Source: Desulfobacterales bacterium (GTDB lineage: Bacteria > Desulfobacterota > Desulfobacteria > Desulfobacterales > UBA2245). Taken from it: a stretch of DNA of 64,000 nucleotides. Every line of letters starts with the position of its first letter. The first letter of the stretch is position 1. The notes under the pieces are model-generated. The model ran no database searches. It was not told the DNA's origin and saw only the letters and a list, made by a program, of their open reading frames with translations. The position numbers and the translations under genes were made by a program. The DNA lies in the NCBI GenBank assembly GCA_040771865.1, contig JAXGZF010000006.1, forward strand, positions 186,001-250,000, written 5' to 3'. This document shows, one piece after another, positions 23,116-60,139 of the stretch.

Positions 23116-24765
23116 ATGGCTTGCCGATCATCCCTTGCCGGACAGGCGGTAGCCTGTTTGATTCTGATCTTGCTGCTGCTGGGTCCGATGCCGTCGGCCC
23201 AGGCTCAGCCGCCCACTCCGGGCGAGGTGAGAGAATCCCTAAAGCCCCGAATGCCTTCGCCTAGCCAGGAAGCGCCGGCCCCCCAGTTTCAAAAGCCTGC
23301 TGCGCCCCGGCCGGAAGCCGTGACCGGCGAACGCCGGGTTCTGGTCAAGCGTTTTGTTTTCAGCGGCAATACCCGGTTCAGCGAAGCCGAATTGCGGGCG
23401 GTCATCGCGGCGTGGGAAGGAAAAGAACTCACCCTGGCTGAAATTTATGGTACTGCCCAGCGTCTCACCGAATTTTACCAGGAGCAGGGCTACAGCGTTT
23501 CGACCGTTACCGTTCCGGCCCAGCGGATGCGGGAAGGCATTCTGCGGCTGGAAGTGGTGGAGGGCCGCGTCGGCAGGCTGACGTTTGAAGACAACCGGCG
23601 CTATTCCGATTCTTTTCTGGAGCGTCGCGTCAGACGGGCGGGGCCCGGAGCTGTCCTCAGGTTCGTCGATCTGGAACGCGATCTGCTGCTCATGAACGAC
23701 CTGCCCGGGCTTACGGCCCGCGCAACGCTGAGCCCCGGCGATGATTACGGGCTGACGGACATCCACTTCCGTACGGAAGAAAAAACCTTCGAAGCCGAAG
23801 TGACCGTGGACAACCACGGAACAGAGGATATCGGCGAATGGCGGACAGGGGTGGATTTTACCATCAACAATCCCTGTACATTCGGAGATGTTCTGAGCTT
23901 GGGCTACACCCACAGCGAGGCCGGACTGCTGCGCCAGGGCCGTGTCAGCTATGGTTTTCCCATTCTTTACGACGGCACCCGCCTGAATCTCAGCTATTCA
24001 AGGGCCGAATACGACGTGGGCGGCGAATTCAGCGCGCTTGGAATCGACGGCGTCAGCGCCACCGCACGCGCCCAGTTGAGCCATCCGCTGATTCGCAGCC
24101 GCCGCACCAACCTTTTTGTCCTTCTGGGAGCGGCCCAGTTAAGGGGCCGATCCGATCTGTCCGGAGCATCCCTGAGCGACGATGAGGTCAATTTTCTGGA
24201 AACCGGTTTTGCTTTCAACCGGCGTCACGATTTCGGCGGCGTGAGCACCTTTTCCGGTATGCTGGCCACCAATTTCCAGAGCAATTCAGACGGAACCGAC
24301 AGCGATGCGCTTCCCCCCCGAATCGAGTTCAACGGAACTTACGAGCAACCATTCGGCCACGGGTGGAGCGGATTTTTGCGCGGGGAAGCGGTGCTCAGCA
24401 ACGATGCCATGCCCGACTCGAATAAATACGCAATCGGCGGCCCGGACAGTATCCGCGGTTTTATCATCTCCACTCTGCGGGGCGACCGGGGGGCCGCGGG
24501 CACGCTGGAACTCCGGCGTTTTATGTCTTTCAAGCTGGCCGACCTGATGATGCGCGGTTTTATCGACGCCGGTCGGGTCTGGTACGAGAACCGTCTGGCC
24601 GACGGCGGCAGCTCCGACTCCCTGGCCAGCGCCGGAGTCGGGCTGAGCGTTCTTTTTGCCAAAAAATATTTTCTGGAAATGCAATGGGCCAAACCCATCG
24701 ACGGCAATGAATCCGGAGAAGGCGACAGCTCCCGGTTTTGGCTAAGTTTCAGCGCAGGTTTCTGA
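23116..24765 (+). CDS. Two-partner secretion transporter TpsB (ShlB/FhaC/HecB family)
   Basis: Signal peptide, Pro-rich linker, POTRA-like segments (GNTRFS, YQEQGY, VVEG), DNHG, GGPDSIRGF loop-6 motif, FIDAG, terminal Phe; AAGGAGG RBS. Confidence 0.93.
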   Translation: MACRSSLAGQAVACLILILLLLGPMPSAQAQPPTPGEVRESLKPRMPSPSQEAPAPQFQKPAAPRPEAVTGERRVLVKRFVFSGNTRFSEAELRAVIAAWEGKELTLAEIYGTAQRLTEFYQEQGYSVSTVTVPAQRMREGILRLEVVEGRVGRLTFEDNRRYSDSFLERRVRRAGPGAVLRFVDLERDLLLMNDLPGLTARATLSPGDDYGLTDIHFRTEEKTFEAEVTVDNHGTEDIGEWRTGVDFTINNPCTFGDVLSLGYTHSEAGLLRQGRVSYGFPILYDGTRLNLSYSRAEYDVGGEFSALGIDGVSATARAQLSHPLIRSRRTNLFVLLGAAQLRGRSDLSGASLSDDEVNFLETGFAFNRRHDFGGVSTFSGMLATNFQSNSDGTDSDALPPRIEFNGTYEQPFGHGWSGFLRGEAVLSNDAMPDSNKYAIGGPDSIRGFIISTLRGDRGAAGTLELRRFMSFKLADLMMRGFIDAGRVWYENRLADGGSSDSLASAGVGLSVLFAKKYFLEMQWAKPIDGNESGEGDSSRFWLSFSAGF

Positions 24766-24785
24766 GGCAGCAAGGAGGTTACGGA

Positions 24786-27700
24786 ATGAACGGAAAACGG
24801 TTTATCAGGCGACGGATGCAATGGTCCGTCAGCGCAAAAAACAACCGGTTCAGTCGTCAGGGGCCCGGCCGGACGGCCGTCTCCTTCTTCCGATGCATTC
24901 TGCTGGCCGCGGTCCTGTTGACGCCGTTTTCCGTCTGGGCCGGTCCGGCCGGCGATCAGGTGGTTGCCGGCAGCGCCGCCGTTACCCGTCCCGATTCCGT
25001 CACAACCCTGATCAACCAGCATACCGACAAGGCGATCATCAACTGGCAGCGTTTTTCCATAGACCCCCAGGAAACGGTTTTGTTTCAGCAGCCGGGCAGC
25101 AGCAGCGTGGCCCTGAACCGGGTGCTCGGGTCCGACCCCAGCCGGATTTTCGGACGCATGAACGCCAACGGCCAGGTCTTTCTGGTCAATCCCAGCGGCG
25201 TGCTCTTTGCCCCCGGTTCCGAGATCAGCGTTCACGGCCTGCTCGCCACCACCCATGATATTCAGGACGACGACTTTCTGGCCGGCCGCTACAGTTTTTT
25301 CCGGACCGATTCGCCCCCGGGCGCGGAGGTGATCAACGAGGGACTTCTGCAAGCCGGCGAACAGGGCTACATCGTGCTGGCCGGCGATTATGCGGCCAAC
25401 CACGGCATCATCATGGCCAAACTGGGTCAGGTGACGCTGGCCTCGGGCGAGCGGTTTACCCTGGATCTGGAAGGCGATGAGCTCATCAGCCTGACGGTGG
25501 ACGAGTCGATTCTGGCGGAACGGGCCGGCGTGGAGAATTTCGGGGAAATCAGCGCCGACGGCGGCCAGGTGATTATGACCGCCCGGGTGGCGAGCGAGCT
25601 GACGGGCGCCGTGGTCAACAATGAGGGCCTGATTCGGGCCCGCACCATCGAGGAGCATAACGGCGAAATTCTGCTTCTCGCCGGCATGGAAAACGGGACG
25701 TTCGCCGAAAACAGCACTGTGCGGGTGGGCGGAGTTTTGGACGCCTCCGCGCTGGACGGGGGGGACGGCGGGTTTATCGAGACCTCGGGCACCTCGGTGA
25801 AGGTCGAGGACGGCGCAATTGTCACCACCCTTGCTTCTGACGGCAAAACCGGCGCCTGGCTTCTGGATCCGCAGGACTATTACATCGCGGCCGTTGGAGG
25901 GGACATTACAGGGAGTGCGTTGTCCTCTAATCTCAGTCAAACCAATGTAACTATCAGCAGCGCTGCCGGCGGTACAAAAGGCCATGGGGATATCTTCGTG
26001 AATGATTCCGTAACGTGGAGCGCGCATACATTAACGCTTGACGCCGAGAGAAACATCGAGATCAATGCGGTCATGACAGCCGCTTTTTCTCCTCTCGGAG
26101 GCTATACGGGGCTGGTGATGAACACCGGTTCGGAGGGCTCGGTTCTGGTCGGCTTCAACGAAGGGGAGGCAACCGGGTTCAAAGGCCGAGTGGATCTGTC
26201 CGGCGGCGTCTCGCTGAACATCAACGGCAATCCCTACACCCTCATCAACAATCTGAATGCCTTGCAGGACATGAGCTCCGATCTTTCGGGATATTATGCT
26301 CTCGGCAGTAACATAGTCGCTTCTGAAACCATCGGCTGGGACGGCGGAAAAGGCTTTGATCCCGTAGGCGAGTTCACCGGCGCCTTTGACGGACTGGGCC
26401 ACACAATCTCCGACCTGACGATCAACCGTCCGGATACCGATAACGTGGGGCTGTTCGGCTATACGAACGGCGCGGTCATCCGCAACGTCGGGCTGATCGG
26501 ATGCAGCGTGAGCGGCGGTCAGTACCATGTCGGCGGGCTGGCAGGGTATGTTGCATACAGTGATATTATCAACTGCTACGCAACGGGCGACGTAACCGGG
26601 GCTTATAAATTTGTCGGTGGTCTGGTGGGTGAGTGCAATTACAACTCCACCATTATCGGCTCCTATGCGTTCGGAAACGTGACAGGCGGAAAGGAAGTCG
26701 GTGGTTTGGCGGGCCGGTGCGGTGAAGGTGAATTCGACTCCGCCATCATCGACTCCTATTTCCAGGGCAGTGTTACCGGGACCGACATAGGACCACACGG
26801 CGGCCTGGTAGGCGTGATGAGAGACACTCTTCTCAACAGCTATTACAACATCGATACTGTCTTGATCAACGGAGGTCACTATGTATACATCGGCGGCCTT
26901 TACAACGACCAGTATGACGACTGGATCGCTGGTGACAAGACGCTGCACATCGGCGACTACCCAACCCTGGCTCTCAACGGCGGATATTACGATATCGGGA
27001 CGGTCCAGGGCATGAAGGACCTGCTGGGTTTTGCCGGCGATTCTTCCTTTAAATTCCGACTGTCGGCGGACATTGATCTGGCGTCGGCCCCCGGTCTTTG
27101 GATCCCCTGGCTGGCGGCGGATTTTGACGGCAACGGCCATACGATCTCCAATCTGAATATCAACCAGCCCTTCTGTGCGGCCGTCGGCATGTTCGGCTCA
27201 GTTTACTCCGACATTGCCAACCTGGGCCTGGTGAACGCCAGTGTTGTCGGTCTCAATCCGGTCGGCGGTCTGGTCGGCGGGAGCGGATACAGCAATATCA
27301 GCAACTGCTACGTCACCGGCAGCGTGAGCGGTCTGGACGGTAATGTCGGCGGTCTGGTGGGCTGGAGCGGATACAGCAATATCAGTAACTGCTACGTCTC
27401 GGGCGACGTGAGCAGCGGAAGTGAAGGTGTAGTCGGCGGCCTGGTGGGGTATAACTTCAGCAGCGCCATCAGCGATTCCTGGTTTTCCGGCAGCGTGACC
27501 GGCACGGCAAATTACGGCGGGCTGATGGGCTACCTTGAATGCGACGACTTTCTCCATCCCGTTGATACAATCAACAACAGCCACTACAACATCGACGATG
27601 TCATCATTAACGGAGGCCATTATGTGACCTTCGGCGGTCTTTACGATGCCCAGTATTCGGACTGGATCGCCGACAAGACGCTGAACATCGCCGACTATCC

Positions 27701-30700
27701 CACGCTGGCGCTCAACGGCGGATATTACGAGATCGGCACGGTCCAGGGCATGAAAGACCTGCTGGGTTTTTCCGACAACCCGGCCTACCAATTCCGCCTG
27801 GCGGCAAACATCGATCTGGCTTCCGCCCCCGGCCTTTTTATTCCCCTGCTGGAAGCGGATTTTGACGGCAGCGGTCATACGATCTCCAATCTTTACATCA
27901 ACCAGTCTAGCGGCACCGGCATGTTCGGCGCAGTTTCTTCCGACATTTCCAGTCTGGGTCTGGTGGATGTCGATGTTTCCGGCTTTGAGACGGTCGGCGG
28001 TCTGGCCGCAGGTTTATTGGGCAAGGGTGGCGACTTTGCCACCATCCTCAACTGCTACGTCACCGGCAGCGTGACGGGTGCAGATTATAAAGTCGGGGGC
28101 TTGGTGGGCCAGAGCATTTACGGCACCATCAGCAACTCCTATTTTTCCGGCAGTGTGACCGGGACCGGTGAACGGGATGCCGGCGGTCTGGTGGGCAAGT
28201 TAGAGGGCGACTCCGCCATATCCGACTGCTACGTCACCGGCAGCGTGGCCGGCACGGCGAATGTCGGCGGGCTGGTAGGGCGGTTCGCAGATGCGTCTTC
28301 CATCAGCAGATCCTACTTTGCCGGCACTGTTACCGGCACAACGAACGTCGGCGGTCTGGCGGGATACAACGAGGATGGCACCGCAACAATCATCTCTTCC
28401 TACTGGGACACAGATTTATCCGGCCTGTTCCAGAGTGTGGGCGCGGGCGGCGACGGGGTTCCGGCTCCGCCTTCGGACCTACGCCTGTTTCTGGACGTGG
28501 GCGCGGACGCCGGGGGGGGGACCGGTCTGAGCACGGCCCAGATGATGCAGGAGGCGAGCTTTGTCGGGTGGGATTTCGACAACGTCTGGTACATCAACGA
28601 GGGAGTCACCCGGCCGTTGTTGCGCATGGGGTACAGCACCTTCATCACCAAACCTTATCAGTTGCAGATGATGGTCCAGGATCTTGCCGCGGACTACACG
28701 CTGGGCGTGGATCTGGACATGGCGATGATTCTGGACTTTTTGCCCGTGGGGGATTCTTCGGCTCCGTTTACCGGAACCTTTGACGGACTGGGCCACACAA
28801 TTGCAAACCTGACGATCAACCGACCCGAGGCGGATTACGTTGGGCTGTTCGGCTGCACGGACAACGCGATCATTCGCAACGTGAGTCTGATCGGGTGCAG
28901 CGTGACCGGCGCGGAGAATGTCGGCGGGCTGGCGGGTTTTGCTCAGAACAGCACGATCAGCAACGCATCCTTTTCCGGCAGCGTGACCGGCACAGATGAG
29001 GTCGGCGGACTGGTGGGCTACGCTGGGTTCAGTGACATCAGCAACTCCTATTTTTCCGGCAGCGTGACCGGCGCCGTGGAGGTCGGCGGCCTGGTGGGGT
29101 ATCTCAACAGCAGCACTCTTGCCGACTCATACTCCAAGGGCAGTATCAGCGGCACAGTGAATGCTTTTGGCCTTGTTGGCGGAATTCAAGACGACTTTGC
29201 CATTATAAACAGCTTCTACAACATCGATGATGTTTTAATCAACGGCGGTCATTATGTGACCATCGGCGGCATTTACAACGCCCAGTATAATGACTGGGTC
29301 GCCGGCGACAAGGCGCTGCACATCGGCGACTACCCCACGCTGGCGCTCAACGGCGGATATTATGAGATCAGCACGGTTCAGGGCATGAAGGACCTGCTGG
29401 GTTTTGCCGGCGATCCGTCCTATAAATTCCGTCTGTCGGCGGACATCGATCTGGCGTCCGTTCCCGGCCTGTTCATTCCCCTGCTGAAGGCGGATTTTGA
29501 CGGCAGCGGTCATACGATCTCCAATCTTTACGTCAACCAGCCTTTCAACGGGGGATTGGGCATGTTCGGCATCGTTCAATCCGACATCGCCAATCTGGGT
29601 CTGGAGAATGTCAGCATCACGGGCGCCGGCACTGTCGGCGGTCTGGCCGCTGTGCTGTGGGGCAGTATTGACAATGAGGCCGTCGTCAGCAATTCCTACG
29701 TCACCGGCAGCGTGACCGGCGAAGAAAATGTCGGCGGGCTGGCGGGCTGGATCGGTTACAGCGTCGTCAGCAATTCCTACTTTGCGGGCGTTGCGACCGG
29801 CGCAACGAACGTCGGGGGCCTTGTTGGATACAACGAGGACGGCGCGATCGTCTCTTCCTATTGGGATATGGATTTGTCCGGCCTGACCGAAGGCGTGGGC
29901 GCGGGCGTCGGCGGGGGGGCCGGTCTGAGCACGGCCCAGATGATGCAGGAGGCGAGCTTTGTCGGGTGGGATTTTGACAACGTCTGGTACATCAACGAGG
30001 GAGTCACCCGGCCGTCGTTGAGCATGTTGTACAGCACCTTCATCACCAAACCTTATCAGTTGCAGATGATGGTCCAGGATCTTGCCGCGGACTACACGCT
30101 GGGCGTGGATCTGGACATGGCGATGATTCTGGACTTTTTGCCCGTGGGGGATTCTTCGGCTCCGTTTACCGGAACCTTTGACGGACTGGGCCACACAATT
30201 GCAAACCTGACGATCAACCGACCCGAGGCGGATTACGTTGGGCTGTTCGGCTGCACGGACAACGCGATCATTCGCAACGTGAGTCTGATCGGGTGCAGCG
30301 TGACCGGCGCGGAGAATGTCGGCGGGCTGGCGGGTTTTGCTCAGAACAGCACGATCAGCAACGCATCCTTTTCCGGCAGCGTGACCGGCGAAGGAAATGT
30401 CGGCGGACTTGCGGGCCGGAGCGTATACAGCGATATCATCAATGCCTATTTTTCCGGCAGCGTGACCGGCACGGAGGATGTCGGCGGGCTGGTGGGCCAG
30501 TGCGAGTATGGCTCTGTCATTACCGATTCTTATTTCTCGGGCAGTGTGACCGGTGCAGATGAGGTCGGCGGCCTGGTCGGATACATTGAAGACAACGACA
30601 TGACCTCCTTCAACCCGCTCGACTTCATCAAGAACAGCCACTACAACATCGACACTGTTTTGATCAACGGAGGTCATTATGTGACCATCGGCGGTCTTTA

Positions 30701-33700
30701 CAACGCCCAGTATTCGGACTGGATCGCCAACAAGACGCTGGATATCGCCGACTACCCGACGCTGGCGCTCAGCGGCGGATACTACGAGATCAGCACGGTT
30801 CAGGGCATGAGTGACCTGCTGGGTTTTGCCGACAACCCGTCCTATAAATTCCGTCTGTCGGCGGACATCGATCTGGCGTCCGCTTCCGGTCTCTGGATTC
30901 CCCTGCTGGGGGCGGATTTTGACGGCAACGGCCATACGATTTCCAATCTTTATATCAACCAGTCCTTCAGCTCGGCGGTCGGCATGTTCGGCATCGTTCA
31001 ATCCGACATCGCCAATCTGGGTCTGGAGAATGTCGATGTCTCCAGCGAGGATGCGGTCGGCGGTCTGGTCGGCGGGATAATTGGCAGCGGTGCGGATTAT
31101 GCCGGCATCAGCAACTGCTACGTCACCGGCAGCGTGACCGGCGAAGAAAATGTCGGCGGTCTGGCGGGCGTACTCATAAACAGCGTCGTCAGCAATTCCT
31201 ACTTTGCGGGCGTTGCGACCGGCGCAACGAACGTCGGGGGCCTTGTTGGATACAACGAGGACGGCGCGATCGTCTCTTCCTATTGGGATATGGATTTGTC
31301 CGGCCTGACCGAAGGCGTGGGCGCGGGCGTCGGCGGGGGGGCCGGTCTGAGCACGGCCCAGATGATGCAGGAGGCGAGCTTTGTCGGGTGGGATTTTGAC
31401 AACGTCTGGTACATCAACGAGGGAGTCACCCGGCCGTCGTTGAGCATGTTGTACAGCACCTTCATCACCAAACCTTATCAGTTGCAGATGATGGTCCAGG
31501 ATCTTGCCGCGGACTACACGCTGGGCGTGGATCTGGACATGGCGATGATTCTGGACTTTTTGCCCGTGGGGGATTCTTCGGCTCCGTTTACCGGAACCTT
31601 TGACGGACTGGGCCACACAATTGCAAACCTGACGATCAACCGACCCGAGGCGGATTACGTTGGGCTGTTCGGCTGCACGGACAACGCGATCATTCGCAAC
31701 GTGAGTCTGATCGGGTGCAGCGTGACCGGCGCGGAGAATGTCGGCGGGCTGGCGGGTTTTGCTCAGAACAGCACGATCAGCAACGCATCCTTTTCCGGCA
31801 GCGTGACCGGCACAGATGAGGTCGGCGGACTGGTGGGCTACGCTGGGTTCAGTGACATCAGCAACTCCTATTTTTCCGGCAGCGTGACCGGCGCCGTGGA
31901 GGTCGGCGGCCTGGTGGGGTATCTCAACAGCAGCACTCTTGCCGACTCATACTCCAAGGGCAGTATCAGCGGCACAGTGAATGCTTTTGGCCTTGTTGGC
32001 GGAATTCAAGACGACTTTGCCATTATAAACAGCTTCTACAACATCGATGATGTTTTAATCAACGGCGGTCATTATGTGACCATCGGCGGCATTTACAACG
32101 CCCAGTATAATGACTGGGTCGCCGGCGACAAGGCGCTGCACATCGGCGACTACCCCACGCTGGCGCTCAACGGCGGATATTATGAGATCAGCACGGTTCA
32201 GGGCATGAAGGACCTGCTGGGTTTTGCCGGCGATCCGTCCTATAAATTCCGTCTGTCGGCGGACATCGATCTGGCGTCCGTTCCCGGCCTGTTCATTCCC
32301 CTGCTGAAGGCGGATTTTGACGGCAGCGGTCATACGATCTCCAATCTTTACGTCAACCAGCCTTTCAACGGGGGATTGGGCATGTTCGGCATCGTTCAAT
32401 CCGACATCGCCAATCTGGGTCTGGAGAATGTCAGCATCACGGGCGCCGGCACTGTCGGCGGTCTGGCCGCTGTGCTGTGGGGCAGTATTGACAATGAGGC
32501 CGTCGTCAGCAATTCCTACGTCACCGGCAGCGTGACCGGCGAAGAAAATGTCGGCGGGCTGGCGGGCTGGATCGGTTACAGCGTCGTCAGCAATTCCTAC
32601 TTTGCGGGCGTTGCGACCGGCGCAACGAACGTCGGGGGCCTTGTTGGATACAACGAGGACGGCGCGATCGTCTCTTCCTATTGGGATATGGATTTGTCCG
32701 GCCTGACCGAAGGCGTGGGCGCGGGCGTCGGCGGGGGGGCCGGTCTGAGCACGGCCCAGATGATGCAGGAGGCGAGCTTTGTCGGGTGGGATTTTGACAA
32801 CGTCTGGTACATCAACGAGGGAGTCACCCGGCCGTCGTTGAGCATGTTGTACAGCACCTTCATCACCAAACCTTATCAGTTGCAGATGATGGTCCAGGAT
32901 CTTGCCGCGGACTACACGCTGGGCGTGGATCTGGACATGGCGATGATTCTGGACTTTTTGCCCGTGGGGGATTCTTCGGCTCCGTTTACCGGAACCTTTG
33001 ACGGACTGGGCCACACAATTGCAAACCTGACGATCAACCGACCCGAGGCGGATTACGTTGGGCTGTTCGGCTGCACGGACAACGCGATCATTCGCAACGT
33101 GAGTCTGATCGGGTGCAGCGTGACCGGCGCGGAGAATGTCGGCGGGCTGGCGGGTTTTGCTCAGAACAGCACGATCAGCAACGCATCCTTTTCCGGCAGC
33201 GTGACCGGCGAAGGAAATGTCGGCGGACTTGCGGGCCGGAGCGTATACAGCGATATCATCAATGCCTATTTTTCCGGCAGCGTGACCGGCACGGAGGATG
33301 TCGGCGGGCTGGTGGGCCAGTGCGAGTATGGCTCTGTCATTACCGATTCTTATTTCTCGGGCAGTGTGACCGGTGCAGATGAGGTCGGCGGCCTGGTCGG
33401 ATACATTGAAGACAACGACATGACCTCCTTCAACCCGCTCGACTTCATCAAGAACAGCCACTACAACATCGACACTGTTTTGATCAACGGAGGTCATTAT
33501 GTGACCATCGGCGGTCTTTACAACGCCCAGTATTCGGACTGGATCGCCAACAAGACGCTGGATATCGCCGACTACCCGACGCTGGCGCTCAGCGGCGGAT
33601 ACTACGAGATCAGCACGGTTCAGGGCATGAGTGACCTGCTGGGTTTTGCCGACAACCCGTCCTATAAATTCCGTCTGTCGGCGGACATCGATCTGGCGTC

Positions 33701-36029
33701 CGCTTCCGGTCTCTGGATTCCCCTGCTGGGGGCGGATTTTGACGGCAACGGCCATACGATTTCCAATCTTTATATCAACCAGTCCTTCAGCTCGGCGGTC
33801 GGCATGTTCGGCATCGTTCAATCCGACATCGCCAATCTGGGTCTGGAGAATGTCGATGTCTCCAGCGAGGATGCGGTCGGCGGTCTGGTCGGCGGGATAA
33901 TTGGCAGCGGTGCGGATTATGCCGGCATCAGCAACTGCTACGTCACCGGCAGCGTGACCGGCGAAGAAAATGTCGGCGGGCTGGCGGGCTGGATCGGTTA
34001 CAGCGTCGTCAGCAATTCCTACTTTGCGGGCGTTGCGACCGGCGCAACGAACGTCGGGGGCCTTGTTGGATACAACGAGGACGGCGCGATCGTCTCTTCC
34101 TATTGGGATATGGATTTGTCCGGCCTGACCGAAGGCGTGGGCGCGGGCGTCGGCGGGGGGGCCGGTCTGAGCACGGCCCAGATGATGCAGGAGGCGAGCT
34201 TTGTCGGGTGGGATTTTGACAACGTCTGGTACATCAACGAGGGAGTCACCCGGCCGTCGTTGAGCATGTTGTACAGCACCTTCATCACCAAACCTTATCA
34301 GTTGCAGATGATGGTCCAGGATCTTGCCGCGGACTACACGCTGGGCGTGGATCTGGACATGGCGATGATTCTGGACTTTTTGCCCGTGGGGGATTCTTCG
34401 GCTCCGTTTACCGGAACCTTTGACGGACTGGGCCACACAATTGCAAACCTGACGATCAACCGACCCGAGGCGGATTACGTTGGGCTGTTCGGCTGCACGG
34501 ACAACGCGATCATTCGCAACGTGAGTCTGATCGGGTGCAGCGTGACCGGCGCGGAGAATGTCGGCGGGCTGGCGGGTTTTGCTCAGAACAGCACGATCAG
34601 CAACGCATCCTTTTCCGGCAGCGTGACCGGCGAAGGAAATGTCGGCGGACTTGCGGGCCGGAGCGTATACAGCGATATCATCAATGCCTATTTTTCCGGC
34701 AGCGTGACCGGCACGGAGGATGTCGGCGGGCTGGTGGGCCAGTGCGAGTATGGCTCTGTCATTACCGATTCTTATTTCTCGGGCAGTGTGACCGGTGCAG
34801 ATGAGGTCGGCGGCCTGGTCGGATACATTGAAGACAACGACATGACCTCCTTCAACCCGCTCGACTTCATCAAGAACAGCCACTACAACATCGACACTGT
34901 TTTGATCAACGGAGGTCATTATGTGACCATCGGCGGTCTTTACAACGCCCAGTATTCGGACTGGATCGCCAACAAGACGCTGGATATCGCCGACTACCCG
35001 ACGCTGGCGCTCAGCGGCGGATACTACGAGATCAGCACGGTTCAGGGCATGAGTGACCTGCTGGGTTTTGCCGACAACCCGTCCTATAAATTCCGTCTGT
35101 CGGCGGACATCGATCTGGCGTCCGCTTCCGGTCTCTGGATTCCCCTGCTGGGGGCGGATTTTGACGGCAACGGCCATACGATTTCCAATCTTTATATCAA
35201 CCAGTCCTTCAGCTCGGCGGTCGGCATGTTCGGCATCGTTCAATCCGACATCGCCAATCTGGGTCTGGAGAATGTCGATGTCTCCAGCGAGGATGCGGTC
35301 GGCGGTCTGGTCGGCGGGATAATTGGCAGCGGTGCGGATTATGCCGGCATCAGCAACTGCTACGTCACCGGCAGCGTGACCGGCGAAGAAAATGTCGGCG
35401 GGCTGGCGGGCGTACTGATAAACAGCGTCATCAGCGATTCATTTACCGCCGTCAGCGTGACTGGCGCAAAGAATGTCGGCGGTCTGGCGGGCTATATCGA
35501 CCCAAGCAATATCATCAACTCCTATTCCATTGGCAGTGTGAGCGGCACGGAGAATGTCGGCGGCCTGGTGGGATACAACGAAGATGGAACGATCACCGAT
35601 TCCTATTGGAACACCGAGACATCGGGCCAGACCGATGGCGTGGGCGTGGGCGTCGGCGGGGGGACCGGCCTGACCACGGACGAGATGATGCAGCAGGCAA
35701 GTTATGCCGGCTGGGATTTTAATACAAAGTGGGACATTGACGAAGGGGAATCCTATCCCTACCTCCTTGCGTTTGCCGATGTTACGCCCGAGCCCGAATC
35801 CGCTGCTGAGGTGGTCCAAATCGTCGAAGCGGAGTTGTTTGAATTAAATGATGTATTAACCGGTACTTTTACCCTTCCGGATCCGGAGCCCGTTGCCGCG
35901 GAGCCGGATGAAAAGGATGAAGAGGGAACGGCCGATGAAGAAGAAAAACGGAAGGTGAATCTGGCCGATCTTCCGCTGCTTGAACTTGAGGGCGGCTGCG
36001 TTTCCGGGCAAAATTTGGAGTGCGAATGA
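24786..36029 (+). CDS. Giant TpsA exoprotein: filamentous-haemagglutinin TPS domain plus GLUG-motif repeats (~3747 aa)
   Basis: AAGGAGG RBS; long signal peptide ending SVWA; TPS motifs INWQRF, ALNRV, VFLVNPSG, GGFIETSG, WLLDP; many VGGLVG/VGGLAG motifs and FDGxGHTIxNL units. Confidence 0.93.
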   Translation: MNGKRFIRRRMQWSVSAKNNRFSRQGPGRTAVSFFRCILLAAVLLTPFSVWAGPAGDQVVAGSAAVTRPDSVTTLINQHTDKAIINWQRFSIDPQETVLFQQPGSSSVALNRVLGSDPSRIFGRMNANGQVFLVNPSGVLFAPGSEISVHGLLATTHDIQDDDFLAGRYSFFRTDSPPGAEVINEGLLQAGEQGYIVLAGDYAANHGIIMAKLGQVTLASGERFTLDLEGDELISLTVDESILAERAGVENFGEISADGGQVIMTARVASELTGAVVNNEGLIRARTIEEHNGEILLLAGMENGTFAENSTVRVGGVLDASALDGGDGGFIETSGTSVKVEDGAIVTTLASDGKTGAWLLDPQDYYIAAVGGDITGSALSSNLSQTNVTISSAAGGTKGHGDIFVNDSVTWSAHTLTLDAERNIEINAVMTAAFSPLGGYTGLVMNTGSEGSVLVGFNEGEATGFKGRVDLSGGVSLNINGNPYTLINNLNALQDMSSDLSGYYALGSNIVASETIGWDGGKGFDPVGEFTGAFDGLGHTISDLTINRPDTDNVGLFGYTNGAVIRNVGLIGCSVSGGQYHVGGLAGYVAYSDIINCYATGDVTGAYKFVGGLVGECNYNSTIIGSYAFGNVTGGKEVGGLAGRCGEGEFDSAIIDSYFQGSVTGTDIGPHGGLVGVMRDTLLNSYYNIDTVLINGGHYVYIGGLYNDQYDDWIAGDKTLHIGDYPTLALNGGYYDIGTVQGMKDLLGFAGDSSFKFRLSADIDLASAPGLWIPWLAADFDGNGHTISNLNINQPFCAAVGMFGSVYSDIANLGLVNASVVGLNPVGGLVGGSGYSNISNCYVTGSVSGLDGNVGGLVGWSGYSNISNCYVSGDVSSGSEGVVGGLVGYNFSSAISDSWFSGSVTGTANYGGLMGYLECDDFLHPVDTINNSHYNIDDVIINGGHYVTFGGLYDAQYSDWIADKTLNIADYPTLALNGGYYEIGTVQGMKDLLGFSDNPAYQFRLAANIDLASAPGLFIPLLEADFDGSGHTISNLYINQSSGTGMFGAVSSDISSLGLVDVDVSGFETVGGLAAGLLGKGGDFATILNCYVTGSVTGADYKVGGLVGQSIYGTISNSYFSGSVTGTGERDAGGLVGKLEGDSAISDCYVTGSVAGTANVGGLVGRFADASSISRSYFAGTVTGTTNVGGLAGYNEDGTATIISSYWDTDLSGLFQSVGAGGDGVPAPPSDLRLFLDVGADAGGGTGLSTAQMMQEASFVGWDFDNVWYINEGVTRPLLRMGYSTFITKPYQLQMMVQDLAADYTLGVDLDMAMILDFLPVGDSSAPFTGTFDGLGHTIANLTINRPEADYVGLFGCTDNAIIRNVSLIGCSVTGAENVGGLAGFAQNSTISNASFSGSVTGTDEVGGLVGYAGFSDISNSYFSGSVTGAVEVGGLVGYLNSSTLADSYSKGSISGTVNAFGLVGGIQDDFAIINSFYNIDDVLINGGHYVTIGGIYNAQYNDWVAGDKALHIGDYPTLALNGGYYEISTVQGMKDLLGFAGDPSYKFRLSADIDLASVPGLFIPLLKADFDGSGHTISNLYVNQPFNGGLGMFGIVQSDIANLGLENVSITGAGTVGGLAAVLWGSIDNEAVVSNSYVTGSVTGEENVGGLAGWIGYSVVSNSYFAGVATGATNVGGLVGYNEDGAIVSSYWDMDLSGLTEGVGAGVGGGAGLSTAQMMQEASFVGWDFDNVWYINEGVTRPSLSMLYSTFITKPYQLQMMVQDLAADYTLGVDLDMAMILDFLPVGDSSAPFTGTFDGLGHTIANLTINRPEADYVGLFGCTDNAIIRNVSLIGCSVTGAENVGGLAGFAQNSTISNASFSGSVTGEGNVGGLAGRSVYSDIINAYFSGSVTGTEDVGGLVGQCEYGSVITDSYFSGSVTGADEVGGLVGYIEDNDMTSFNPLDFIKNSHYNIDTVLINGGHYVTIGGLYNAQYSDWIANKTLDIADYPTLALSGGYYEISTVQGMSDLLGFADNPSYKFRLSADIDLASASGLWIPLLGADFDGNGHTISNLYINQSFSSAVGMFGIVQSDIANLGLENVDVSSEDAVGGLVGGIIGSGADYAGISNCYVTGSVTGEENVGGLAGVLINSVVSNSYFAGVATGATNVGGLVGYNEDGAIVSSYWDMDLSGLTEGVGAGVGGGAGLSTAQMMQEASFVGWDFDNVWYINEGVTRPSLSMLYSTFITKPYQLQMMVQDLAADYTLGVDLDMAMILDFLPVGDSSAPFTGTFDGLGHTIANLTINRPEADYVGLFGCTDNAIIRNVSLIGCSVTGAENVGGLAGFAQNSTISNASFSGSVTGTDEVGGLVGYAGFSDISNSYFSGSVTGAVEVGGLVGYLNSSTLADSYSKGSISGTVNAFGLVGGIQDDFAIINSFYNIDDVLINGGHYVTIGGIYNAQYNDWVAGDKALHIGDYPTLALNGGYYEISTVQGMKDLLGFAGDPSYKFRLSADIDLASVPGLFIPLLKADFDGSGHTISNLYVNQPFNGGLGMFGIVQSDIANLGLENVSITGAGTVGGLAAVLWGSIDNEAVVSNSYVTGSVTGEENVGGLAGWIGYSVVSNSYFAGVATGATNVGGLVGYNEDGAIVSSYWDMDLSGLTEGVGAGVGGGAGLSTAQMMQEASFVGWDFDNVWYINEGVTRPSLSMLYSTFITKPYQLQMMVQDLAADYTLGVDLDMAMILDFLPVGDSSAPFTGTFDGLGHTIANLTINRPEADYVGLFGCTDNAIIRNVSLIGCSVTGAENVGGLAGFAQNSTISNASFSGSVTGEGNVGGLAGRSVYSDIINAYFSGSVTGTEDVGGLVGQCEYGSVITDSYFSGSVTGADEVGGLVGYIEDNDMTSFNPLDFIKNSHYNIDTVLINGGHYVTIGGLYNAQYSDWIANKTLDIADYPTLALSGGYYEISTVQGMSDLLGFADNPSYKFRLSADIDLASASGLWIPLLGADFDGNGHTISNLYINQSFSSAVGMFGIVQSDIANLGLENVDVSSEDAVGGLVGGIIGSGADYAGISNCYVTGSVTGEENVGGLAGWIGYSVVSNSYFAGVATGATNVGGLVGYNEDGAIVSSYWDMDLSGLTEGVGAGVGGGAGLSTAQMMQEASFVGWDFDNVWYINEGVTRPSLSMLYSTFITKPYQLQMMVQDLAADYTLGVDLDMAMILDFLPVGDSSAPFTGTFDGLGHTIANLTINRPEADYVGLFGCTDNAIIRNVSLIGCSVTGAENVGGLAGFAQNSTISNASFSGSVTGEGNVGGLAGRSVYSDIINAYFSGSVTGTEDVGGLVGQCEYGSVITDSYFSGSVTGADEVGGLVGYIEDNDMTSFNPLDFIKNSHYNIDTVLINGGHYVTIGGLYNAQYSDWIANKTLDIADYPTLALSGGYYEISTVQGMSDLLGFADNPSYKFRLSADIDLASASGLWIPLLGADFDGNGHTISNLYINQSFSSAVGMFGIVQSDIANLGLENVDVSSEDAVGGLVGGIIGSGADYAGISNCYVTGSVTGEENVGGLAGVLINSVISDSFTAVSVTGAKNVGGLAGYIDPSNIINSYSIGSVSGTENVGGLVGYNEDGTITDSYWNTETSGQTDGVGVGVGGGTGLTTDEMMQQASYAGWDFNTKWDIDEGESYPYLLAFADVTPEPESAAEVVQIVEAELFELNDVLTGTFTLPDPEPVAAEPDEKDEEGTADEEEKRKVNLADLPLLELEGGCVSGQNLECE
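28631..35411 (+). repeat. Intragenic tandem array of near-identical 1398/1422-bp units (A-B-A-B-B')
   Basis: Marker gtacagcaccttcatcacc at 28631, 30029, 31451, 32849 and 34271 (spacings 1398, 1422, 1398, 1422); printed lines match at offset 2820. Confidence 0.95.
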
Positions 36030-37201
36030 AAACTTTCAGAACCGATGGAATGATGGTTGCGGGCTGCAGGATCAGGATGACTTTTCTGCTATGTACGGTT
36101 CTTGCTGCTGTCCTGCTGGCCCACCCTTCCTGGGCCGCGGAACCCGCCGGCAAGGTGGCGGCCATGGCGGGTGCGGTGACGGCCGAAGACGCCGGCGGCG
36201 CTGTTCGTTCCCTTGCTCAGGATGCTCCGGTTTTTTCCGGTGATGTCATCAACACCGGACCCGGTGCCAAGGTACGCATCGTCTTTACCGACAGCAGCGT
36301 TATTTTTCTGCGCCCACTGTCCCGGCTGGTGATTGACGAGTATCGCCACACCGGTGATCCGCAGCATGACCGGAGCAATTTTACCCTGATGAGAGGCGGG
36401 TTCAGAGCCGTCACCGGCACTATTGGCCGAGCCAACACCGACAGCTACCGGATCGATACGCCGGTGGCCACCATCGGCATTCGCGGAACCGACCACGAGG
36501 GCCGCTATTGCACGGGCGACTGCTATGATCTTGCCGACATCGGCGTCGTTCCGCCGCCCGATGGTCTTTATACCGGAACCAACAGCGGTCGGACCGTAGT
36601 CGGCGGCGTGGAATTCGGACCGGGTCAGTACGGCCACACCAATCTTGACAGGGTCACCCGGATGCTTCCCGAACCACCGCCGATTCTGACCCGGGACCCC
36701 TACCTGCGCAATGCCATTGCTGATCAGGATGCCAGGGCTGCCGGAGTTGTTCCGGCCGATCAGAAAGCTGAACCGGATCAAGGGACAGCGGCTGACCAGG
36801 CGGTTTCGGGTGATCAGGGCGTTCCGTCAGGCCAGGTCATTCCATCTGGGCAGGGCGGTCTGATGGTTCCGGGCGTTTCGACCGTTCCGGGGGTTACGTC
36901 CGATCAAGGCGTTGTGACCGGCCAGGCGGTTCCGGGTGATCGGGGCGTTCCGTCAGGCCAGGTCGTTCCGTCAGAGCAGGGCGGTCTGATGGTTCCGGGC
37001 GTTTCGACTGTTCCGGGGGTTACGTCCGATCAAGGCGTTGTGACCGGCCAGGCGGTTCCGGGTGATCGGGGCGTTCCGTCAGGCCAGGTCGTTCCGTCAG
37101 AGCAGGGAGGTCTGACCGTTCAGGGTATGCCGGTTGCGAGCGATGAAGGCATCGAGATTCCAGCCATGCCATCCGGCGTACGGACAGTCCAGTGCCGGTA
37201 G
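36026..37201 (+). CDS. Exported FecR-domain protein with C-terminal low-complexity repeats
   Basis: ATGA overlap with tpsA stop; signal peptide ending PSWA; VFSGDVINTG, IVFTDSS, GGFRAVTG, TPVATIGIRGT. Confidence 0.88.
   Translation: MKTFRTDGMMVAGCRIRMTFLLCTVLAAVLLAHPSWAAEPAGKVAAMAGAVTAEDAGGAVRSLAQDAPVFSGDVINTGPGAKVRIVFTDSSVIFLRPLSRLVIDEYRHTGDPQHDRSNFTLMRGGFRAVTGTIGRANTDSYRIDTPVATIGIRGTDHEGRYCTGDCYDLADIGVVPPPDGLYTGTNSGRTVVGGVEFGPGQYGHTNLDRVTRMLPEPPPILTRDPYLRNAIADQDARAAGVVPADQKAEPDQGTAADQAVSGDQGVPSGQVIPSGQGGLMVPGVSTVPGVTSDQGVVTGQAVPGDRGVPSGQVVPSEQGGLMVPGVSTVPGVTSDQGVVTGQAVPGDRGVPSGQVVPSEQGGLTVQGMPVASDEGIEIPAMPSGVRTVQCR
36795..37120 (+). repeat. 126-bp (42-aa) tandem repeat, ~2.5 copies, built on a 6-aa period
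   Basis: ggcgttccgtcaggccaggtc at 36818, 36944 and 37070. Confidence 0.9.
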
Positions 37202-37300
37202 TTCAGCGCATGGCAGATCCATGAACACAAGGTCGGCCCTGGGCCTGGTAATGCATATGCGCGTGATGACGGATCAGCTTTAAAATTTATTTACTGATGA

Positions 37301-39550
37301 ATGAAAGCAATGCCGCGTCCTAAGGCCCTGTTGAAACCGACTCCTTTCAAGATCGGCTGCCTGGTTATCCTGGCGGCCGCTTTGCTTTTTTATTCGTTTG
37401 GCGTCGAAAAGCCCCCCCTTCTGGATGCTCTGGACAAGCGGGTGACGGACAGCATGTTCAACTGGCGCGGTCCTGAGCCGGTCAGCGGTCGAGTGGTTAT
37501 CGTCGATATTGACGAGCAAAGCCTTCGAAAGGTCGGACAGTGGCCTTGGTCCCGGAACGCGGTCGCCGCGATGCTGGCCAATATCGGTGCCGGCGGAGCG
37601 CGGGCCGTCGGAGTTGACATCGTCTTTGCCGAGCCGGACCGGACATCTCCTGCCCGGTTTCTATCGGATCTTCGGCAGCGCTTTCCCGCCGCCTTTGTTG
37701 ACGCACACCTCACCCGCCTGCTGAATCAGGGGGAATTCAATCACGATCGCATCCTCGGCGAAACCCTGGCCGGCTTGCCGTCGGTTCTGGGCTATGTCTT
37801 TCAGGTCACGGACGACGGACTCAAGGACGCCGGCAGTACGCCCTTTCCCGCCGCCGCTATCCGCCTCGACCCTCCGGATGCGAGTTTTTCCGATCTGACC
37901 CTGCTTTCCGCCTTTCGGGCGATTCTCAATGTATCGGACATATCCCAGGCTGCAAGCGAGGGCTTTTTCAACGTTTTTCCCGATATCGACGGAACGGTCC
38001 GCAAGGTGCCCCTGTTGATGGAAATGGACGGAATGCCGTATCCATCGCTGGCCCTGGAACTGGCCCGAATCGGCCTGGGTGAGGAAAGCCTCACGATTCA
38101 GGCGGAATCCGCCGCTTCCGTAAGGCGGCGCGGGCTTTTCGGAATTTCCCTGGGCGAACGTTTCATACCCACCGATGAACACGGCCAGATCTGCGTAAAC
38201 TTCCGCGGACCGCCTTACTGCTTTCCTTATGTTTCGGCGGTTGACGTGATCAATGGAGAAAATCTGAAACTGTTTCAGGACAAGATCGTGATCATCGGCA
38301 CATCGGCCGCCGGGCTTCTTGATCTCCGCTCCACGCCTTTTGCCAGCGTCTATCCGGGCGTTGAGATTCAGGCCAGCATCATCGACAACATTCTGGCTGC
38401 CGATCCTCTCGTCTACGACATTTACACCGAAATCGGAATGACCTATCTGATGATTGTTGCGGGGGGGCTGGTTCTCTCAGCCCTGCTGACCTTCAGCGGC
38501 CCGCTGGCCGGGGGCCTGGGCGCCGTGCTGCTGGTCGTAGCCGCTGCGGCCGGAAATTATATATTTTTTTTCAAACAGCGCGTGGTGGTCGGCCTGGTTT
38601 ATCCTCTGGCGTCGCTTGTGGTTCTTTTCATCGTGGTCACCCTCTTCAACTACTTTTTCGAAGGCCGGCAGAAAAGATTTATCAGCAAGGCTTTCAGTCA
38701 GTACGTGCCGCCGGAACTGGTAAAGAAAATGGCTGCAAGGCCCGACGAACTCGGTATCGGCGGCGAGACGCGGGAGATGACGGTGCTTTTTACGGATGTG
38801 CGCGGATTCACCACGATCTCCGAAGGCCTCGAAGCCACCGAGCTGACCCGGCTGATGAACGAGATGCTTACCCCGATGACCCGGATCATTCATCAGCATC
38901 GCGGAACGATCGACAAGTACATGGGCGATGCGATCATGGCCTTCTGGGGCGCGCCGCTGCATGATGACGATCACGCTCGGCACGCACTTCAGGCCGGCCT
39001 GGCGATGGTGGCCGAATTGCCCAGAATTCAGGAAGAATTCAAGGCCAGGGGCTGGCCTCCGATCCGGGTCGGCGTCGGATTGAACAGTGGTCCGATGAAC
39101 GTCGGCAACATGGGCTCGGAATTCCGCATGGCCTACACGGTTCTGGGGGATGCGGTCAACCTCGGCTCCCGCCTGGAAGGTTTGACCAAGCAGTACGGGG
39201 TGGATATCATTGTCGGTGAACACACCAGGTCTCTGGTGCCGGATTTCGCTTACCGTGAGCTGGACAAGGTTCGAGTCAAGGGCAAGGGAAAACCGGTTTC
39301 GATTTTCGAACCCCTCGGTCCCGCCGAGAATCTGAGCCCGCAGGAAGCCGAACGCCTGCAACGTTATCACCAGGCTCTGGCGCTTTACCGGAACCGGGAA
39401 TTTGCGGCGGCTGGAGAAATTTTTGAGATTTTGATTCGAGAGGAACCCCACCGGCCGATTTACGGCCTTTATCGCAACCGGATCCGGCACTTTCAGCAGA
39501 ACCCGCCTGAACCGGACTGGGACGGCGCCTTTACCCATACCGCCAAGTGA
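37301..39550 (+). CDS. CHASE2-domain class III adenylate cyclase
   Basis: CHASE2 motifs VVIVDIDEQSL, GQWPWSR, DIVFAEPD, DGTVR, PGVEIQA; three TM helices; catalytic VLFTDVRGFT, DKYMGDAIMA, YTVLGDAVNLGSRLE, VRVKGK; WDG tail. Confidence 0.93.
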   Translation: MKAMPRPKALLKPTPFKIGCLVILAAALLFYSFGVEKPPLLDALDKRVTDSMFNWRGPEPVSGRVVIVDIDEQSLRKVGQWPWSRNAVAAMLANIGAGGARAVGVDIVFAEPDRTSPARFLSDLRQRFPAAFVDAHLTRLLNQGEFNHDRILGETLAGLPSVLGYVFQVTDDGLKDAGSTPFPAAAIRLDPPDASFSDLTLLSAFRAILNVSDISQAASEGFFNVFPDIDGTVRKVPLLMEMDGMPYPSLALELARIGLGEESLTIQAESAASVRRRGLFGISLGERFIPTDEHGQICVNFRGPPYCFPYVSAVDVINGENLKLFQDKIVIIGTSAAGLLDLRSTPFASVYPGVEIQASIIDNILAADPLVYDIYTEIGMTYLMIVAGGLVLSALLTFSGPLAGGLGAVLLVVAAAAGNYIFFFKQRVVVGLVYPLASLVVLFIVVTLFNYFFEGRQKRFISKAFSQYVPPELVKKMAARPDELGIGGETREMTVLFTDVRGFTTISEGLEATELTRLMNEMLTPMTRIIHQHRGTIDKYMGDAIMAFWGAPLHDDDHARHALQAGLAMVAELPRIQEEFKARGWPPIRVGVGLNSGPMNVGNMGSEFRMAYTVLGDAVNLGSRLEGLTKQYGVDIIVGEHTRSLVPDFAYRELDKVRVKGKGKPVSIFEPLGPAENLSPQEAERLQRYHQALALYRNREFAAAGEIFEILIREEPHRPIYGLYRNRIRHFQQNPPEPDWDGAFTHTAK

Positions 39551-39770
39551 GGAGAATGCTCCTGTGGTTTTTCGTTGCCGGCGGATTCTCAATAGGGTAG
39601 ATTGATTTTATCAGCGGACGGTTTCTTGGTGGTTGAATCAGCGCGGAAAAAGCCGGAACCGGCCGAGTCCGGATCGACAGCGGGGGCTCGCCGGCAGCCC
39701 TTTGCGGATAGTGAAAGACGGATTTCCTTTTCAATGGCTTTTAAATTTGAATTCGAATACTGAAAATTTC

Positions 39771-40682
39771 ATGAAAGTCATCCCCTTTAATCCGGGAAAA
39801 CGCATTCTCGAAAAAGCCAAAGCCTATATCAAGGCCCCTTATCTGGTGACCGAGAAACCCGATCATGCGGTTCCGGCCATTCTTCGAGCCCTGCCGTACG
39901 CCGATTCCCCGATGAAGCAAAGGCTGATTCTGCTGATCGGCGGCATTGCCCGCGATGTCGTTGCCTGGAGCCTTTTCGAGATCTGCACGGACCCCGAAGA
40001 ATCAGAGGAAGTCCGGCACATGTCCGCAATCCAGCTGAGCCTGACCCTGTCGCGATTAAACCTTCCCGCCCTGCGGAACCGCTTGATGGAGATCCTTCAA
40101 AATGCAGACCCCGAGCTTCGAAACCACGCTGCGATCGCGCTTGGATGGCAGAAAAATGTCGAGGCGATTCCAGCCCTGACCCGGCTGCTGTCCGATCCTG
40201 ATGCGCAGGTTCATCAAAGCGCGGCAACCGCTCTGGCCGATATCGGCGAACCGCTGACCTTCGATACCCTCAGGGAGCGGCTTGCCACCGCCTCTTCGGA
40301 TCTCAAACGCGCCATCCTCTACAATCTCTGGCGGTTTTCAACCCGCAGGAAAGACGCCGAGTCCGTCTATCTGGAACATCTGGATGATTCAAACGAGCAA
40401 ACCCGCTATGATGCGCTTGTTCTGCTGGGAACGGTCTCTCATCCGGCCCGGCACATCGAGGTTTACGAAAATGCGCTGGATAATTCGAATCCCATGGCCA
40501 GAGTGCTGGCACTGAATCGCCTCGCCAAGGTGGATGCCGGGGATTTGAACCGTCTCGAAAGCAAAATCCGAATGCTTACCCTGGATACCGATTCCCAGGT
40601 TCGGGAAGCGGCCCTTAAGCTCCTTGCGCGATTCAGGGATATGCAGGGGTCGAGGCCATTTTTAAAGCCGGTCAAGTGTTAA
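39771..40682 (+). CDS. HEAT-repeat protein
   Basis: Repeated helical units (DPELRNHAAIALG, DPDAQVHQSAATALADIG, DSQVREAA). Confidence 0.8.
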   Translation: MKVIPFNPGKRILEKAKAYIKAPYLVTEKPDHAVPAILRALPYADSPMKQRLILLIGGIARDVVAWSLFEICTDPEESEEVRHMSAIQLSLTLSRLNLPALRNRLMEILQNADPELRNHAAIALGWQKNVEAIPALTRLLSDPDAQVHQSAATALADIGEPLTFDTLRERLATASSDLKRAILYNLWRFSTRRKDAESVYLEHLDDSNEQTRYDALVLLGTVSHPARHIEVYENALDNSNPMARVLALNRLAKVDAGDLNRLESKIRMLTLDTDSQVREAALKLLARFRDMQGSRPFLKPVKC

Positions 40683-55123: not shown

Positions 55124-55405
55124 TGCGGCATTCCTTTTTGATGGATTGAATTCTGATTTTATGAATTTTTTTAATTGTATATATGATTTTCAAAGATGTC
55201 AAAATGGGGATCAGCAGTTTAAAGCCTGTGGACCGGTTCTGATTTCGAAGGGCGTTGAAAAACAGGATTCAGGTCGTCGAACAAGGCTTGCGGTGATGCG
55301 ACAGGTGCGGCATATTCCAGCATATGTGAGCATTGATGGAAGCCCTGCAACCCTGCATGGCAACCTGATACATGGATGAACTATTTCAAAGTCTTGGAGC
55401 GGGAC

Positions 55406-59216: not shown

Positions 59217-59250
59217 ATAAGCGGACCTATTGAGAGGAAAGGCGTCGAGA

Positions 59251-60051: not shown

Positions 60052-60139
60052 GGTTAAAGACGCTGGTCACGCTTTTTCCAAGCCCCGAGCGGTCCGATTC
60101 CCGGCAGATCCGCAACCCGTACGTTTCGTGAAAAGATGA

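Follow-up and report, generated by a model that had tools for sequence, protein, structure and literature searches.

A TpsB-TpsA-FecR-CHASE2 cyclase locus in a Desulfobacterales bacterium: a candidate tethered-fibre signalling module

Could a protein fibre secreted to the bacterial surface report its state to a membrane adenylate cyclase? This question is raised by four genes at positions 23116..39550 of a 64,000-nucleotide stretch of DNA (hereafter the window; contig JAXGZF010000006.1, positions 186,001 to 250,000) from a Desulfobacterales bacterium (GenBank assembly GCA_040771865.1), which encode an outer-membrane transporter (TpsB), a giant two-partner-secreted protein (TpsA), a FecR-domain protein, and a cyclase with a CHASE2 sensor domain. 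A preliminary description made from the sequence alone had proposed that they form an adhesin-coupled, trans-envelope cyclic AMP (cAMP) signalling system. We found that the TpsB-TpsA-FecR-CHASE2 module is real and conserved, with no description found in the full-text literature searched. Its conserved core, present in Desulfobacterota, Beta- and Gammaproteobacteria, is TpsB-TpsA-FecR, in which TpsA and the FecR-domain protein are probably joined through their terminal cysteines.

The conserved core and its paired terminal cysteines

Open reading frame (ORF) calls and Pfam matches place tpsB, tpsA, fecR, and the cyclase gene co-directionally on the + strand, which also carries all features given below for this locus, and the spacings reported in the preliminary description are those of the DNA: 20 bp between tpsB and tpsA, an ATGA overlap between tpsA and fecR, and 99 bp between fecR and the cyclase gene. 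The four-gene linkage it had proposed is conserved beyond chance, with the same order in two loci (L284, of the same genus, and L089, a metagenome contig) and other orders elsewhere, but the obligate unit comprises only three of the genes. This comparison covered the best 80 of 581 genome loci and the best 80 of 578 metagenome loci holding FecR relatives, classed by their neighbours with purpose-built hidden Markov models. TpsB/TpsA with a short FecR protein was the layout of 32 loci, and a Slam-type TPR-barrel gene followed by a FecR protein, for the most part long, that of 84, with 44 unclassed; Pfam confirmed the Slam layout at one locus (L287, by SlipAM and TbpB_B_D).

TpsB (549 aa; 23116..24765) is an Omp85/FhaC-type outer-membrane transporter with the POTRA region and Omp85-type barrel of a type Vb TpsB (POTRA_2, PF08479, and the ShlB barrel, PF03865, both above cut-off). 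It is the only outer-membrane barrel encoded at the locus. TpsA (3747 aa; 24786..36029; PF05860, PF07581, TIGR01901) has the signal peptide (hydrophobic stretch at aa 32-50) and N-terminal TPS domain (aa 63-304; PF05860 at 124 bits, with TIGR01901 also matching) of a type Vb TpsA, followed by a stalk of GLUG repeats and an acidic tail. Self-blastn delimits the repetitive stalk to 26835..35440, in which pairs of units, each about 470 aa long, make up a 2820-bp higher-order repeat that is 98.8% identical over 3426 bp; the near-identical tandem copies span 28496-34738, and either recent expansion or an assembly effect could set their number. Since orthologues of 893 aa (L089), 2666 aa (L284), and 3747 aa (the window) all keep their ends, the length of TpsA is free and its ends are conserved. 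From sequence and alignments, the C-terminal tail (35787..36029) passes from an acidic low-complexity stretch through a hydrophobic strand to a conserved penultimate cysteine, Cys3746 (codon 36021-36023). A second cysteine lies eight residues earlier (Cys3738, 35997-35999); it is common only to L089, and its position is occupied by glycine in the same-genus orthologue.

The FecR-domain protein (391 aa; 36026..37201; PF04773, E 4e-11) begins with a predicted cleavable signal peptide (aa 1-37, 36026..36136). This 37-aa N-terminus has a single hydrophobic stretch, and a cytoplasmic anti-sigma domain is lacking, as the preliminary description had noted. An AxA-like site was found in 106 of the 117 scorable homologues and a lipobox in 0, with a median of 36 residues ahead of the domain, by a pattern count and not a predictor; several relatives carry additional N-terminal sequence ahead of the FecR domain. 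The FecR-type beta domain (aa 38-231, 36137..36718), delimited by alignment and fold comparison, is folded confidently in the predicted structures, and the remainder is unfolded in both monomer models. By sequence and alignment, this remainder (36719..37201) consists of a flexible linker of about 150 aa with internal repeats and a conserved end motif carrying a penultimate cysteine, Cys390 (37193-37195). The linker repeats measure about 40 aa (36780-37140) and are absent from the 270-aa orthologue of L089.

The modelled domain resembles PupR (6OVM, Z 14.6) and also BDI_1681 (Z 13.7). Its first half superposes on the MpIBP structure 5IX9, with Z 7.9 across 75 of 76 residues and, by Foldseek, a root-mean-square deviation of 0.8 A over 62. 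Furthermore, 5IX9 was the sole match at E<=1 (E 8.8e-8) when the FecR family profile was compared with PDB sequences, and the LapA retention family NF033682 gave a weak FecR match, below its cut-off. By sequence profile and fold, the N-terminal half of the FecR domain and the retention plug of the MpIBP RTX adhesin are homologues. Gly154-Thr155 (36485-36490), invariant in 138 aligned rows, is a candidate self-cleavage site, being similar to that of FecR and FoxR (PMC9249621), which has also been noted in Leptospira FecR-domain proteins (PMC13719327). In four proteins (P0248, P0318, P0319, P0325), FecR domains in tandem are joined to an OmpA-like barrel at the C-terminus, and the terminal cysteine is lacking.

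A probable link between TpsA and the FecR-domain protein emerges from their ends. A terminal cysteine was present in all 26 intact TpsAs adjoining a FecR gene and was the sole cysteine of the last 40 residues in 25 of them; the tails are acidic and scarcely alignable, yet this final cysteine is invariant. FecR homologues likewise carry a terminal cysteine (117/120 and 124/138), and because Cys162 and Cys166 form an invariant pair, the near-invariant last one makes the cysteine count odd. Among intact FecRs of TPS loci, 31/31 had the terminal cysteine and 30/31 an odd count, against 4/77 and 0/77 at Slam loci; at loci with no recognised exporter, the terminal-cysteine status of FecR and of the upstream ORF agreed in 22 of 23 cases. 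Ends at assembly gaps were omitted (FecR of L260, L261, and L284; TpsA of L003), the usual Cys-ending motif of the L284 FecR being present in another frame. Duplicate loci (L251, L252, L256, L179, L125, L019, L095, L285, L274) were removed from the cysteine counts of TpsAs adjoining a FecR gene, as well as from the count of CHASE2 genes near loci outside Desulfobacterota given below, and were retained in the FecR cysteine counts of TPS and Slam loci.

Control TpsAs were chosen by PF05860 alone, independently of FecR neighbourhood, using 22 of 27 matches from a 251-genome phylum sample and 60 regions for 110 matches from a 151-genome class sample; regions were selected for ORFs of about 800-4700 aa, yielding 82 TpsA rows, 63 with intact ends. 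A lone terminal cysteine was found in 8/8 control TpsAs whose region holds a FecR gene (7 loci from 6 genomes) vs 2/55 without it, 10 of these 55 having less than 2.5 kb of downstream sequence; any terminal cysteine occurred in 6/55. All seven FecRs of the control loci end in cysteine. A mixed TpsA-FecR disulfide best explains these data, because each protein has one spare cysteine, the two are translationally coupled, and one of them is a plug homologue. Paired terminal cysteines and homology to an RTX plug, neither of them raised in the preliminary description, suggest a covalent tether with an anchoring role, and co-conservation makes it likely that the disulfide creates a two-protein anchor in the periplasm. 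Paired cysteine ends were also seen with a non-TPS exporter in a single case on a distant, long FecR branch (L267:3287-10933, G526 C15), where a TolC-like OEP gene and a TPR gene accompany a Cys-ending FecR and a 1417-aa, Cys-ending protein with DUF4347 and FG-GAP.

The CHASE2 cyclase and its linkage to the core

The membrane adenylate cyclase (37301..39550; Pfam CHASE2, PF05226 at 213 bits, and Guanylate_cyc, PF00211) has four transmembrane stretches, one ahead of a periplasmic CHASE2 domain (aa 28-369) and three between it and a class III catalytic domain (aa 490-665). Residue alignment bore out the catalytic residues named in the preliminary description: the metal-binding D499 and D543, K539 and T613, and N620 and R624. 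K539 and T613 align with the Lys and Thr of the adenylate cyclases 3R5G and 1WC0/1WC1, and 2W01 has Glu at the Lys position; on these residues, the predicted product is cAMP. No CHASE2-domain structure was found among the best 60 of 64 PDB matches.

A cyclase gene adjoins 17 of the 20 loci in the clade nearest the window FecR, one of them seen only as a catalytic part at a contig end and several of the 20 lying on contigs that hold only the 3' end of tpsA; L257, L258, and L260 have none. Cyclases also adjoin L178, L262, and L039; outside the nearest clade, two Desulfobacterota loci have an adjoining cyclase. Overall, six gene orders occur (A, tpsA; B, tpsB; F, fecR; C, cyclase): B-A-F-C in the window, L284, and L089; B-A-F facing C in, for example, L003, L090, L250, and L255; C-B-A-F in L006, whose cyclase is split in two frames; C-B-A-F-A in L178; A-C-B-F in L262, with the cyclase between tpsA and tpsB; and C divergent from B-F-A in L039. 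Moreover, in a quick tree of 57 cyclase rows, long branches included, the 19 enzymes linked to TPS-FecR are spread over at least four positions, and a single clade was rejected (approximately unbiased test, p-AU 9e-30). The window FecR groups with Desulfobulbales FecRs and the window cyclase does not group with Desulfobulbales cyclases. Because adjacency holds across six gene orders, convergent and divergent ones included, and at least four cyclase lineages, a functional link between TPS-FecR loci and cyclases is supported; repeated recruitment of different cyclases makes hitch-hiking hard to invoke.

The window cyclase has three sister rows, its closest non-TPS relatives: L287 and L288, which adjoin FecR-TbpB cargo genes, and L286, in which FecR is not in view. 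In the former two (L287:685-6936 and L288:8389-13661), the cyclase relatives stand behind a FecR and TbpB-barrel gene, and in L287 the Slam barrel is visible as well, encoded by a SlipAM gene, which suggests that the outer-membrane module paired with the cyclase is exchangeable. Genome-wide, CHASE2 genes occur somewhere in 15/15 trio-bearing genomes checked vs 75/151 genomes of the class sample (a tally that includes one unpublished genome, G292), a weak support for the association.

Other combinations were also observed. At L228 (1826-14223), TpsA, double-FecR, and TpsB genes are followed by a CHASE2 Ser/Thr kinase gene replacing the cyclase; at L175 (5199-15995), TPR-CHAT, CHASE2 cyclase, and DUF928 genes face TpsA/TpsB, with DUF928 taking the place of FecR. 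The second CHASE2 cyclase of the source genome (L087:9866-13459, G000 C9) comes after SH3-domain and M48-peptidase genes.

Proposed mechanism and rival explanations

We propose a tethered-fibre signalling module. By homology, TpsB exports the TpsA fibre, whose unfolded acidic tail, as inferred from HMW1, HxuA, and CdrA, would stay threaded through TpsB into the periplasm. There, as co-conservation indicates, the lone terminal cysteine of TpsA would be disulfide-bonded to the spare terminal cysteine of the periplasmic FecR-domain protein, so that the beta domain, an RTX-plug homologue exceeding the pore size, would hold the fibre on the cell. In the weakest step, the FecR domain on its flexible leash would be the periplasmic partner of CHASE2, and a change in the fibre (pull, binding, shedding, disulfide reduction, or parting of the Gly-Thr halves) would alter this contact and hence cyclase activity, with cAMP as the putative product. 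Export, periplasmic tail, and disulfide anchor are together considered likely. The sequence extended to FecR as a CHASE2 partner reporting fibre state is given a probability of about one half; fibre-to-cAMP signalling is accordingly plausible but inferred, given that CHASE2 genes lie near so few loci outside Desulfobacterota.

Several observations weigh against this proposal. CHASE2 was found near 2/33 TPS+FecR loci outside Desulfobacterota, and near 1/8 of those in which both flanks reached at least 2.5 kb; in same-order genomes, FecR was near only 5/18 CHASE2-cyclase regions, and CHASE2 cyclases therefore have other partners as well. Linkage to TPS or Slam switches only twice on the FecR tree, so that the cysteine counts reflect long conservation after one or two origins and Fisher p-values overstate the association. 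Single loci also depart from the pattern, since the L151 FecR lacks the terminal cysteine after a Cys-ending ORF, and the L202 and L210 TpsAs have the lone cysteine with FecR absent from the region, while the window TpsA, with two tail cysteines, could close its own loop. Neither DsbA nor DsbB was matched in the source genome, in which the sole VKOR match is weak (E 7e-4, below cut-off; a 330-aa ORF with two CxxC motifs), and exported-like ORFs displayed no even-cysteine bias (25 even, 36 odd), as obtained with crude ORF calling and export prediction.

The main rival retains the anchor and discards the relay: the disulfide-linked FecR plug would only retain TpsA, and the cyclase would be nearby because cAMP would regulate adhesin expression or behaviour in biofilms, with CHASE2 reading some other signal. 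Homology to 5IX9 and to the LapA retention module, the 31 of 33 loci outside Desulfobacterota whose trio has no adjoining CHASE2 gene, the N-terminal extension of several relatives, and the frequent presence of SapC, not a cyclase, downstream in proteobacterial loci are all in keeping with it. We nevertheless regard it as rather unlikely, given that cyclases of at least four lineages adjoin the trio, that the L262 cyclase lies inside it, that FecR-CHASE2 linkage recurs with other outer-membrane parts, that every trio genome checked has CHASE2 genes, against 75/151 in the class sample, and that a good CRP/FNR box was not found 5' of tpsB.

Two further explanations change the tether itself, and both appear improbable. 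In one, the relay of the preliminary description taken with no covalent link, TpsA forms a hook from its own two cysteines in the manner of HMW1 and touches FecR non-covalently, or FecR binds the TpsB POTRAs. The two tail cysteines, eight residues apart, of the window TpsA and L089 would fit, as would the two-cysteine tails of control TpsAs without FecR, an anchor type described in PMC5422565; but the second cysteine is absent from 25/26 relatives, is replaced by Gly within the genus, and the conserved spare cysteine of FecR would be left unexplained. In the other, FecR transiently holds the TpsA tail during export, by mixed disulfide or as a chaperone, or is co-secreted, or else the end cysteines bind metal or carry a modification with no pairing. 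Translational coupling of tpsA and fecR and the absence of canonical DsbA/DsbB among source-genome matches are compatible with such a role, and PMC13719327 discusses host interaction as a role of Leptospira FecR-domain proteins. However, FecR has neither a TPS domain nor a TbpB-like export barrel, its plug homology fits retention, and the cyclase linkage would remain unaccounted for.

A broader view can be offered only tentatively: sigma-less FecR-type domains may be general periplasmic connectors, on interchangeable surface leashes, and the missing ligand of CHASE2 sensors. The leashes would comprise a disulfide to the TpsA tail, fusion either to Slam cargo or to an OmpA-like barrel, and possibly a disulfide to TolC-linked cargo. 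The present locus would then be a sensor of contact or tension, driven by the adhesin through covalent wiring, that makes cAMP and has RTX-plug ancestry. The recognition target of CHASE2 domains is stated to be unknown in PMC5192318, and the module offers a candidate protein ligand for them, bearing also on how NsrA-type outer-membrane signals reach the cyclase. The two-residue handle formed by TpsA C3746 and FecR C390 makes both ligand and signal transfer testable by point mutants. Furthermore, the locus points to an undescribed retention of a two-partner-secreted adhesin, by a separate plug protein clipped on, and through sequence and fold it connects the FecR domain with the retention module of RTX adhesins. 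The relay, if true, would constitute an adhesin-based surface-sensing route in anaerobic Desulfobacterota and many uncultured proteobacteria.

Genomic context and comparison with known systems

The locus is flanked by housekeeping genes (era, an HNH gene, a HEAT-repeat gene, trk, and tig), and its G+C is somewhat higher than that of its surroundings (0.57-0.61 vs mostly 0.50-0.55). The HEAT-repeat gene (39633-40682), directly 3' of the cyclase, is kept in the same-genus genome and lies outside the module in other relatives. In the source genome (2.98 Mb, 98% complete), FecR and TPS are each matched once, class III cyclases number three, two of them with CHASE2, and there are nine cNMP-binding matches, one of which, with a C-terminal helix-turn-helix, looks like a CRP/FNR-type regulator. 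The genome also encodes a 330-aa membrane protein (L304:931-1923, G000 C5) with the weak VKOR match and a C-terminal CxxC, a candidate disulfide-forming enzyme. Regarding expression, four runs of one anaerobic-digester study contain short RNA contigs that match the 5' portion of fecR at 98-100% identity; covering only part of that gene, none spans two module genes by at least 31 letters. The promoter scan found no sigma-70-like site 5' of tpsB and flagged nothing between fecR and the cyclase gene, and a candidate CRP/FNR box 5' of tpsB was rejected (best scores 6/10 and 7/10). Terminator-like matches numbered 22 vs 18.2 in shuffles, with a single weak hairpin immediately 3' of the cyclase stop codon.

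Beyond the locus, the window contains an AtuA-family gene followed by DUF4387 (55376-57081), near corrinoid methyltransferase and RACo genes (58572-61762). In proteobacterial TPS-type loci (L007, L010, L018, L049, L059, L066, and others), a SapC gene (PF07277) often lies 3' of FecR, and it also follows some TpsAs without FecR (L217, L219). In L186 and L187, where FecR is likewise absent, TpsA lies between an upstream FKBP/thioredoxin gene and downstream DUF2341, LamG, and MotA/ExbB genes, possibly another trans-envelope TPS module.

FecR-type proteins are best known from cell-surface signalling, and the domain described here shares the periplasmic fold (6OVM) and invariant Gly-Thr motif of the anti-sigma factors FecR, FoxR, and PupR (PMC9249621). 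Unlike them, it has no cytoplasmic anti-sigma domain and no adjoining extracytoplasmic function (ECF) sigma factor or TonB-dependent transducer, and a FecIRA system was rejected on these grounds, in agreement with the preliminary description; neither an ECF sigma factor nor a TonB-dependent receptor was found among 48 scanned ORFs of the window, picked as likely genes from the 123 listed. FecR-domain proteins encoded next to a CHASE2 sensor have been reported in a Campylobacterota cyclase-phosphodiesterase-FecR-TPR cluster (PMC9239204) and a Burkholderia LysM-FecR and CHASE2 kinase operon (PMC5192318); in the partial texts of these papers, no TPS system, cysteine tether, or mechanism is mentioned. 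The openly accessible full texts searched yielded FecR together with CHASE2 in PMC9239204, PMC5498481, and PMC5192318, none of them with a TPS system in the portions available.

Retention of TpsA proteins has been described through an intramolecular disulfide loop (HMW1, HxuA) or a LapG-cleaved periplasmic tail (CdrA) (PMC5422565). As in these proteins, TpsA would have its C-terminus in the periplasm and carries a cysteine at its end; unlike the loop of HMW1 and HxuA, here one TpsA cysteine is conserved and a matching spare one is found on a second protein. A self-contained HMW1-type cysteine hook was rejected, as only one cysteine is conserved, alone in 25/26 relatives, and Cys3738 is Gly in the same genus. 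The RIN domain of MpIBP (5IX9) is a periplasmic plug, too large for TolC, that retains the adhesin (PMC5550230). The FecR domain, MpIBP RIN, and LapA (NF033682) have in common a small beta-sandwich related by homology, for which a role in plugging outer-membrane pores from the periplasmic side is proposed. In those type I systems the plug is the adhesin's own N-terminus, whereas in the present type Vb system it forms one half of a larger domain in a separate, Sec-exported protein.

Finally, the NsrA-CyaK/CyaD1/CyaD2 system of Sinorhizobium meliloti combines an outer-membrane component with an inner-membrane CHASE2 adenylate cyclase to convert a surface event into cAMP (PMC7529298, PMC13001267). 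The present locus resembles it in having an outer-membrane part and a CHASE2 receptor adenylate cyclase that would do likewise, and differs in that a TpsB pore, with the secreted fibre that it would hold, takes the outer position, together with a separate periplasmic FecR-domain protein. In brief, the module would be NsrA-CyaK-like in outline and HMW1/LapA-like in its tether, and appears to belong to neither.

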